Shown: positions 59,591-60,802 of the stretch, piece by piece
Numbering within the stretch: the stretch's first letter is position 1
How the letters are laid out: each line of letters opens with the position of its first letter
Position numbers and translations under genes: made by a program
The notes under the pieces: generated by a model
The model's database searches: none
Told to the model about the DNA's origin: nothing
What the model saw: the letters and a program-made list of their open reading frames with translations, nothing else
Assembly: GCA_021604705.1 (NCBI GenBank)
Contig: BQJM01000001.1
Coordinates: 8,276-72,275 of the forward strand
Direction of reading: 5' to 3'
From: a marine bacterium B5-7
GTDB lineage: Bacteria > Pseudomonadota > Gammaproteobacteria > BQJM01
Length of the DNA stretch: 64,000 nt

Positions 59591-59632
59591 TCCATTCCAG
59601 AATGGTTACGGCTATTCTGGAATCCATGGCAT
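59591..59632. repeat. 42-bp element TCCATTCCAGAATGGTTACGGCTATTCTGGAATCCATGGCAT with a 10-bp perfect inverted repeat ATTCCAGAAT/ATTCTGGAAT, copy L. It encodes the C-terminal MPWIPE* of ATPase 3 and can act as a bidirectional terminator.
   Basis: Seen in sequence. Confidence 0.8.
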
Positions 59633-60745
59633 TTCAGCTAACCAAGGTAAGAGGGCTCGAACAGCCAGTCCTTCCGGACAAGTAAATTCTCGTTTCAAGT
59701 GACGTACGAGTTGTATATTGTCAACACCTGGGAAAAATTTTGCGAAGTGTTTAAAGTGTGGCGAAGGGTCACTGTCGGAAGTTTTTACCTCAATTAAATG
59801 TGTTGGTTTTTCATCTTGTACGATGAGAAAATCAAGCTCTTTACCTTCTTTGGTTCTGACGAAATGTAGCATTGCTTCAATACCTCGTGTGTCTGTTAGA
59901 TAGTTTAATTCCTTCAGTAACGCACTTGCTACCATATTTTCTAATCGTGCACCGTCGTCTTCGGCATAGGTCCAATCATAAAAATAAAATTTAGGTTCTT
60001 TCATTAAAGCCCGAGCAACATTTTTGTGATAAGGGGTGACACGAAAAATAATGTATAAATTCTCTAACAATAACAACCAACGTTTAATGGTATTAATATC
60101 GCGACCCAAGTCGCGCGCTAAATTGGCGTAGGAGACGGTGCCACCGATGCGTTTTTTCAGCATGGCGACCAGCGTTTCAATCGATTGGATATCAGAAACC
60201 GTATTCATGTCGATGAGATCTTGACGCAGAATAATATTCAAATGGCTGCGGCGCCAGCGTTTATAATAAGCCGGATCCCCTTTAAGAAATGGTTCTGGAA
60301 AACCACTACAATGCCATAATTGATTGAAACAAGTTTCCATATCCCATTCTTTCAGTGGGAGCGCTTCTTTCAAATCAAATGGATGAAGGCGGTGTTGAAA
60401 GTAACGACCAGCAAGTGAATCTCCAACTTTTTGATGGGTGTCCATACGTGCGCTGCCAGTGACTAACAACTTGGGCGGAATACCTTCTGTATCGTAAATG
60501 CCTTTTAGCCATTGTTTCCAATCCTGCTTTTTGTGTAACTCATCAAAAATAATGAGATCTTTTGTTCGGTCCCATTGTTTCTTTTGTAGCTGTAAGCGAT
60601 CTTCAACGGCATCGAAATTCAAATAATCGTGCGCGTCAAATAATTGCTTTGCCAAGGTGGTTTTTCCGACCTGGCGAGGCCCAGATAGCAAGACGATTTT
60701 ATTGTCGAGATCACTGAGAATATGATGTGATAAATATCTTTCCAT
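59612..60745 (-). CDS. AAA+ (AAA_14-like) ATPase with C-terminal PD-(D/E)xK-like motif, paralog 3.
   Basis: Walker A GPRQVGKTT, Walker B LIIFDELH, C-terminal ELDFLIV...LIEVKTS. Confidence 0.7.
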   Translation of the reverse strand: MERYLSHHILSDLDNKIVLLSGPRQVGKTTLAKQLFDAHDYLNFDAVEDRLQLQKKQWDRTKDLIIFDELHKKQDWKQWLKGIYDTEGIPPKLLVTGSARMDTHQKVGDSLAGRYFQHRLHPFDLKEALPLKEWDMETCFNQLWHCSGFPEPFLKGDPAYYKRWRRSHLNIILRQDLIDMNTVSDIQSIETLVAMLKKRIGGTVSYANLARDLGRDINTIKRWLLLLENLYIIFRVTPYHKNVARALMKEPKFYFYDWTYAEDDGARLENMVASALLKELNYLTDTRGIEAMLHFVRTKEGKELDFLIVQDEKPTHLIEVKTSDSDPSPHFKHFAKFFPGVDNIQLVRHLKREFTCPEGLAVRALLPWLAEMPWIPE

Positions 60746-60760
60746 GTGACTATTATAGCG

Positions 60761-60802
60761 CCCATTCCAGAATGGTCAAGACTATTCTGGAATCCATGTC
60801 AT
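60761..60802. repeat. Copy R of the 42-bp element (38/42 identical), 16 nt upstream of the ATPase 3 start. Read on the minus strand it would encode MTWIPE*.
   Basis: Seen in sequence. Confidence 0.8.

Follow-up and report, generated by a model that had tools for sequence, protein, structure and literature searches.

In the window, by which we mean the whole 64,000-nt stretch of contig BQJM01000001.1 (marine bacterium B5-7, assembly GCA_021604705.1) that was analysed, an ATPase-nuclease gene of the PDC-S01 type (59612-60745, minus strand) is bracketed by two 42-nt direct repeats. We found that the right repeat forms the inner part of a promoter palindrome that is conserved in the gene family and accompanies the gene in unrelated contexts, and that it is the 3' end of the gene that carries a copy of its 5' promoter palindrome, not the reverse. 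This left (3') copy looks like a lineage-specific, disabled extra copy of the palindrome, fused to the gene end. We favour, as rather probable, an account in which the locus is a PDC-S01 module with a promoter embedded in a palindrome, and in which the left copy is the scar of a head-to-tail duplication joined at the tetranucleotide AATG and later disabled.

The promoter palindrome of the gene family

Eighty metagenomic loci carrying homologs of 54-70% identity were fetched and, where the 5' region was present, gave 57 distinct sequences. In all of the ~57 distinct loci, the homologs being 55-79% identical, a palindrome of ~64 nt was found immediately 5' of the ATG. Its pattern over the 57 upstream sequences is TGACTATTATGACA-nnn-ATTCCG-nnnn-AGTC-TT-GACT-nnnn-CGGAAT-nnn-TGTCATAATAGTCA, and the window palindrome (60747-60810) contains four half-sites of the GAC/GTC type, with outer arms that are partly degenerate. 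The information content of these loci is zero upstream and begins to climb precisely where the palindrome starts on its left; at the other end, DNA conservation stops at the stop codon of the gene, with nothing conserved beyond it. Moreover, a search with an nhmmer profile built from 58 homolog upstream regions revealed exactly one copy of the palindrome per homolog locus, the window excepted.

The dyad is kept by compensatory changes, as illustrated by the 24 of 31 pairs that are altered on both sides. Paired cells amount to 78.9%, compared to 30-40% when the pairing is slid. For covariation the palindrome scores 0.267, shuffles 0.150 and slid controls 0.06-0.10. Arm mismatches show no bias of G-T over A-C on either strand, indicating that the symmetry exists at the DNA level and is not that of an RNA hairpin. 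An RNA element was rejected: Rfam gave zero matches at the palindrome, no G-U bias was observed, and the promoter lies inside the palindrome, which places the latter outside the gene's mRNA.

A sequence of the right-repeat type was met in three contexts: beside queA in the window, beside tgt in the closest relative (L038, 79% identity), and beside a tRNA-like sequence, recognised by eye, in a gammaproteobacterial metagenome-assembled genome (L037). The closest relative has the same upstream sequence, and its 3' end carries nothing similar. In L037, whose homolog is 65% identical, a longer perfect palindrome stands directly before the ATG and has its loop and the downstream TAATAGTC in common with the right repeat. 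In a 96.8% identical strain (L120), the right repeat is 100% conserved and the first mismatch falls one base outside it. Given that no conserved neighbour genes were found among 60 distinct homolog loci and that each locus has one palindrome, the transferable unit is the palindrome plus the gene, ~1.2 kb in all. A sequence-only reading of this stretch had taken the right repeat for a relic of the 3' end of a homolog, or of a target, which does not agree with its being the core of a promoter palindrome at ~57 homolog loci.

The features of the locus, in window coordinates, are as follows.
59592-59633: left repeat, comprising codons M372-E377 and the stop; stem of ~12-13 bp, loop of 4-6 nt
59581-59641, minus strand: extended left copy, ~61 nt, a diverged near-whole palindrome that matches the nhmmer profile
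60762-60803: right repeat, inner core of the promoter palindrome
60747-60810, minus strand: full family palindrome, 64 nt, directly 5' of the ATG (nhmmer profile, 3.3e-17)
60752-60779, minus strand: predicted sigma-70-type promoter, TTGACC-16 nt-TATAAT, the best match (11/12) in 58000-62200
59612-60745, minus strand: AAA+ ATPase/winged-helix/PD-(D/E)XK nuclease gene, 377 aa (Pfam; PADLOC PDC-S01)
58224-59573, plus strand: rhlE (DEAD-box helicase), convergent neighbour (Pfam DEAD and Helicase_C)
60904-61941, plus strand: queA, divergent neighbour (Pfam Queuosine_synth, 1.6e-133), whose 345-aa start is backed by P0121 and L122

In the window, the -35 hexamer (60779-60774) is located at the centre of the palindrome and the -10 hexamer (60757-60752) in its right outer arm. 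The family hexamers occupy the same places, TTGACT or TTGACC at the centre and CATAAT or TATAAT in the right outer arm; dyad-symmetric sites overlapping the -35 and -10 of the gene's own predicted promoter are conserved in 57 loci. The ATG at 60745 starts 6 nt past the -10 (family range 6-10 nt). Given this distance, and that no Shine-Dalgarno sequence was found between the -10 and the ATG in the window sequence, the mRNA is predicted to be leaderless, with its start at the A of the ATG. The spacing from the centre to the ATG is 34-38 nt in 49/57 homolog loci, and the remaining eight, in which it is longer, show Shine-Dalgarno-like sequences when read by eye.

The palindrome is likely to be an operator, bound most probably by the winged helix of the protein itself, and autoregulation is the mechanism that we prefer; subfamily-specific palindromes beside winged-helix genes would fit it. 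Cruciform extrusion of the palindrome is conceivable as well. In the literature that was searched, we found nothing on the regulation or the promoter palindrome of PDC-S01, and the promoter palindrome of this subfamily appears to be undescribed there.

As predicted from its sequence, the gene is a self-contained single-gene module of the PDC-S01 type (candidate defence; COG1373). Pfam assigns AAA_14 (PF13173, 1.2e-25) to the N-terminal part and DUF4143 (PF13635, 2e-29) to the C-terminal part, and the PADLOC PDC-S01 models PDLC04790 (9.9e-53) and PDLC04789 (1.6e-49) match. Walker A (G27-K28-T29 in GPRQVGKT), Walker B (D68-E69 in IFDE) and the nuclease motif D305...E319-x-K321 are invariant in 28 homologs. 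The gene is solitary and has a patchy, horizontally transferred distribution; viral contigs of IMG/VR gave zero matches, and plasmids two distant ones (36-43% identity). PDC-S01 is an ATPase fused to a PD-(D/E)XK domain (PMC12988326, PMC3424549), and DUF4143 is listed among the PD-(D/E)XK (PMC3424549). Among prokaryotic (candidate) defence systems it has been ranked fourth in frequency, with multiple cross-domain transfers; its defence activity is that of a candidate only, without experimental validation, and its mechanism and regulation are not known (PMC12988326). Roughly 40,000 PDC-S01 genes have been reported.

Solved structures gave zero sequence matches to the ATPase-nuclease protein. 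Its AlphaFold2 model has a mean pLDDT (predicted local distance difference test score) of 73.5 and is good past residue 120 and poor over the N-terminal 120 residues. Using Foldseek, we obtained weak, consistent matches (E >= 1e-3) of the central part to MarR/ArsR/SmtB winged-helix repressors and of the N-terminal part to the AAA+ protein McrB; the putative winged helix spans about residues 183-255.

The left copy and the origin of the repeat pair

The left and right repeats are 38/42 identical, with a spacing of 1170 nt. Both contain the perfect 10-bp inverted repeat ATTCCAGAAT/ATTCTGGAAT, which one G-T and one G-C pair lengthen to a 12-bp stem with a 6-nt loop. The left repeat supplies the C-terminal MPWIPE and stop of the 377-aa open reading frame; the right one, whose end is 16 nt from the ATG, would read MTWIPE and stop in the same orientation. 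The repeats with their identity, the 10-bp inverted repeat and the two peptide ends had been described correctly in the sequence-only reading, as had the rank of the gene as a third paralog (AAA_14+DUF4143 genes are found at 176-1507, 53096-54238 and 59612-60745). In the 64-kb window the 42-mer occurs only in these two copies, where shuffles expect 0.

Three of the four mismatches between the repeats fall inside the 6-nt loop (P ~0.007), and the 24/24 stem positions are unchanged (P ~0.03). Outside the 42-mer, diverged homology with zero transversions flanks the repeat for 8 nt at one end and for 11 nt at the other; the probability of such runs is ~4e-3 (8 nt) and ~5e-4 (11 nt) when estimated as 0.5^n, and 2e-3 for >=9 and 2.4e-4 for >=12 by sampling. 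The left copy is therefore ~61 nt long, near the whole 64-nt family palindrome. In its extended form it matches positions 17-69 of the nhmmer profile (20.9 bits, E 9.6e-5), and such a second match, at the 3' end of the gene, was observed only in the window and in a Logan contig (L001/L122) that is 100% identical over 2.8 kb.

The left copy is nearest to the right repeat (37-38/42), followed by the palindrome of the sister organism (34/42), the family median being 25/42; it was copied within this lineage. Its hexamers have changed from TTGACC to GTAACC (-35) and from TATAAT to CATGAT (-10), and the family-invariant GTC/GAC core has become GCC/AAC, with the stems intact. On the coding strand the central 6 nt read TCTTGA in the right repeat and CCGTAA in the left copy, a difference at 3 positions. 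The coding-side changes LTR to LAE and MT to MP shift the new tail toward the family pattern. Homolog C-termini are conserved through PWLA and variable after it, and MPWIPE terminates none of them; at the junction position, a Met is present in the sister protein (WLSLMKL and stop, vs WLAEMPWIPE and stop in the window). Homology between the region upstream of the right repeat and the C-terminus of the gene was also considered and rejected: RNIYPTLTRMTWIPE (to the stop, upstream of the right repeat) and RALLPWLAEMPWIPE (to the stop, gene C-terminus) do not match significantly as proteins (E 6.4), and as DNA only 8 nt beside the repeat are free of transversions.

In the account that we favour, the left copy would have been joined to codon 371/372 at the AATG microhomology, forming a head-to-tail junction. 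That the gene's 3' end adjoins a copy of the gene's upstream region, exactly one unit away, is the signature of a head-to-tail event, and palindromes are hot spots for template switching. Such a junction could have arisen by a tandem duplication followed by deletion of the second gene copy, by a short ectopic templated patch, or through a circular or concatemeric intermediate. It would have swapped the native C-terminal tail for MPWIPE and stop. Afterwards, both hexamers and the GTC/GAC core of the 3' copy would have mutated, stopping antisense transcription into rhlE; a full-strength promoter at this place would fire antisense into rhlE, which offers a reason for the loss of the hexamers. The stems would have been retained in part for being coding sequence, and perhaps also for a benefit of the hairpin where the convergent genes meet. 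As a rearrangement scar the duplication is of an ordinary kind, and we infer its mechanism and the selection on the 3' copy. That recombination or duplication made the repeat pair and rewrote the C-terminus, as first proposed, is retained here, and the polarity and mechanism proposed with it are not.

Several points weigh against this account. Using tblastn, we found no remnant of a second gene copy, either downstream of the left copy or elsewhere, and the tandem-duplication route needs a second event, namely the clean deletion of that copy. An intermediate or empty-site state was found in no relative. The perfect stems of the left copy beside strongly diverged flanks are explained only in part. 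As for the operator, the winged-helix matches are weak (E >= 1e-3) and the AlphaFold2 model is poor in the N-terminal 120 residues; furthermore, compensation at weakly conserved positions suits cruciform or hairpin pairing, or self-correction of the palindrome through template switching, at least as well as a simple operator.

There is perhaps one chance in a few, in our estimation, that the 3' copy is kept for a function, either as a hairpin that ends or stabilises the convergent transcripts or as a low-affinity protein site involved in looping. This proposal concerns its present role and is compatible with any origin. It would account for stems that are 24/24 identical while 6/11 positions of the adjacent non-coding flank and 3/6 of the loop differ. 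The plus-strand RNA folds stably (-22.9 kcal/mol, z = -2.75) shortly after the rhlE stop, from which the left repeat is 18-19 nt and the extended left copy 7 nt away; the minus-strand fold, however, is not more stable than shuffles (z = -0.4), and neither strand has a U-tract. Half of the hairpin is constrained as coding sequence, and the core that is invariant in the family is the very part destroyed in the left copy. An intrinsic terminator was rejected: the stem has 3 G-C pairs in 10, there is no T-run on either strand, and the hairpin is absent among the terminator-like sites. The bidirectional terminator that had been ascribed to it thus finds no support, the terminator scan being blank at both copies.

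Recombination, mobility and dispersed repeats

We consider it improbable that the palindrome is a recombination site through which the gene integrated between rhlE and queA, the copies being attL and attR or a target duplication, and the palindromic copies doubling as terminal inverted repeats. This is what the sequence-only reading had suggested with its target-duplication signature and attachment (att)-like site, and it is largely unsupported. The 12-6-12 layout of the core does resemble the core sites of tyrosine recombinases, and the protein has a PD-(D/E)XK nuclease domain. In a would-be crossover, however, only the arms are identical, with 3 differences among the central 6 nt, unlike the matching cores expected of such sites. 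The 1170-nt unit contains no recombinase or transposase, the ATPase being its sole open reading frame, and the neighbours are rhlE and queA. Palindrome and gene clearly move horizontally as a discrete 1.2-kb block, in line with the multiple cross-domain transfers of PDC-S01 (PMC12988326); yet a palindrome at both ends was observed in one of ~60 loci, the repeated DNA is the element's own promoter and not a target, and viral contigs gave no matches and plasmids the two distant ones.

When direct repeats on either side of the unit were sought generically, three other cases (L062, L043 and L096) and no rule of target duplication emerged. The one that speaks for mobility is L062, in which a 76-nt direct repeat of host intergenic DNA (2859-2934 and 4176-4251, the distal 46 nt identical) brackets the palindrome-plus-gene unit including 32 nt of 3' flank. 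This repeat takes in the whole intergenic region that separates two divergent genes, one of 813 aa and one that is gltX-like (N-terminus read by eye). Both neighbours keep their upstream DNA, and the case remains without explanation. The remaining flanking repeats are a mixed set, each explained by its local setting: the 17-nt repeat of L043 lies between tandem, 78%-identical host paralogs and is one hairpin arm, which weakens it as a target duplication, and that of L096 falls within a hairpin of the repetitive extragenic palindromic (REP) kind. The 98-nt repeats that flank paralog 2 of the window belong to a three-copy intergenic module, which also brackets an F-box gene, and they too were rejected as a target duplication.

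Among near strains, exact look-ups with the ATPase, RhlE and QueA returned the Logan contig that is 100% identical over 2.8 kb (L001), with the same arrangement as the window, and the 96.8% identical strain L120, which is truncated. The next relative by QueA (72% identity) has a different gene order, its ATPase being beside tgt. In this relative's scaffold (L038/L121, SCHR19-1 scaffold_31), an island of ~13 kb that carries genes for type IV secretion, AbiEii and PemK splits queA from tgt; the ATPase is thus by tgt there and by queA in the window, both being genes of the queuosine pathway. This position may be a coincidence or the remains of an ancestral one.

Still more doubtful is the idea that palindrome and gene form a minimal selfish or self-mobilising module, in which the palindrome would be promoter, operator and, as an extruded cruciform or hairpin, the DNA that the module's AAA+/PD-(D/E)XK nuclease uses for moving or copying the block. 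If true, the order palindrome-gene-palindrome would be a terminally redundant product, and the duplication in L062 would be another footprint.

That the 42-mer is a generic REP-like repeat or an intrinsic terminator unconnected to the gene family is scarcely credible, for although it forms a hairpin between convergent genes and REP-like hairpins exist elsewhere in the genome, the 64 kb of source genome that were covered contain just two copies, and there is one homologous element at each of ~57 other loci, always at the gene's promoter, so that the common intergenic REP against which the sequence-only reading had set its own proposal is not what was found. In addition, a scan for the hairpin ATTCCAGAAT-N8-12-ATTCTGGAAT in 185,579 species genomes, the source genome not being among them, gave 36 single hairpins, of which only that of L037 is alike beyond the searched motif. 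A REP-like hairpin, GTCATCCCGCACTTGATGCGGGATCTCC, was seen in the window at 51239-51274 and 62031-62066, its copies 92% identical and placed in intergenic regions that have no relation to each other; it exemplifies the appearance of a genuinely dispersed palindrome in the source genome.

Paralogs, neighbourhood and known systems

All three paralogs of the window have upstream repeats or palindromes of their own, which differ from each other. Paralog 1 (176-1507) is directly preceded by three 33-nt tandem repeats (60-158; CATAAAnTACCCTTAyTyTGTGACA...) that contain TGTGACAA/TTGTCACA as an inverted pair and resemble an operator of its own; its stop codon overlaps the beginning of a putative ruvC, identified by eye. 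Paralog 2 (53096-54238) has an inverted repeat with 25-nt arms (52986-53040) ~55 nt before the ATG. Its homologs L123, L125, L126 and L127 (63-77% identity) have upstream palindromes with half-sites of the ATCGnGAT type, that of L123 with perfect 26-nt arms. A Shine-Dalgarno sequence is present at paralog 2 and its homologs, indicating that these genes are not leaderless.

The three-copy intergenic module (51293-51390, 52827-52924 and 54246-54343) has copies that bracket both the F-box gene and paralog 2. Each copy has a bidirectional terminator hairpin and, after it, a ~50-nt core, AGATTACTTATGAACTTACAACTTCACTATACCAAGCAAACCTTAAGG, that is 100% identical among them; between the second and third copies the identical core reaches ~60 nt. 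On the minus strand the module resembles a short transcript ending in an intrinsic terminator, and it may be a small-RNA gene family; Rfam gave zero matches for it. A 44-nt repeat, 93% identical (51402-51445 and 56283-56326), copies the 3' end of a gene for a 622-aa secreted protein to just after the first copy of the module, and 51283-51445 looks like the region 54246-56326 minus the gene. Duplication and insertion thus seem to concentrate downstream of rplQ, in an apparent hot spot.

Eukaryote-like F-box and ankyrin-repeat proteins are encoded among housekeeping genes (51929-52636, 62098-62637 and 62723-63598). Such proteins are typical of the effectors of intracellular bacteria of the Legionellales-like kind, and they suggest an intracellular lifestyle. 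Elsewhere, at 14670-14789, at least 7 tandem 12-nt repeats (GCTTGGCTCTGG and variants) lie inside the open reading frame 13347-16889 (minus strand), a gene for a 1180-aa RTX-type protein that adjoins an ABC/HlyD/OEP export cluster.

An insertion or att signature, if true, would have meant a new way of mobilising single genes; it is unsupported, and the promoter palindrome found throughout the family is a more interesting result than the duplication scar. The palindrome provides a testable handle on the control of PDC-S01, be it by autorepression or by sensing of supercoiling through a cruciform, and together with the gene it delimits precisely the 1.2-kb segment transferred from genome to genome. 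As for the 3' copy, it is a natural experiment in which promoter and core were knocked out and the hairpin was retained.

Compared with elements bounded by attL and attR, the window has in common that direct repeats bracket a horizontally acquired gene and that one of them overlaps a coding end. It differs in that the repeat rebuilds no host gene and is the element's own promoter, in that no recombinase is present and the cores are not identical, and in that the arrangement does not recur in the family. With the head-to-tail junction of a tandem duplication, or of a circularised segment, the likeness is one of layout: at the 4-nt AATG microhomology, the gene's 3' end runs into a copy of the gene's upstream region, and the repeat spacing of 1170 nt equals one unit. 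Unlike such a junction, the window holds no second gene copy, and the copied piece has almost exactly the extent of the palindrome, which suits a short templated patch too.

For the upstream palindrome, the comparison to draw is with the C-protein operators of restriction-modification systems, which likewise have adjacent dyad half-sites over the -35, a leaderless transcript and GACT/AGTC-type sequences. In contrast to these systems, the window gene is without a small Xre-type C protein, and the putative regulator is a winged helix within a 377-aa ATPase-nuclease; in addition, a C-box measures ~35 bp, whereas the family element is one continuous palindrome of ~64 bp with compensatory changes in its arms. 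The C-boxes of C.PvuII and C.Esp1396I belong to leaderless, autoregulated promoters, and the analogy, which serves as a lead, is one of working, not of family membership.

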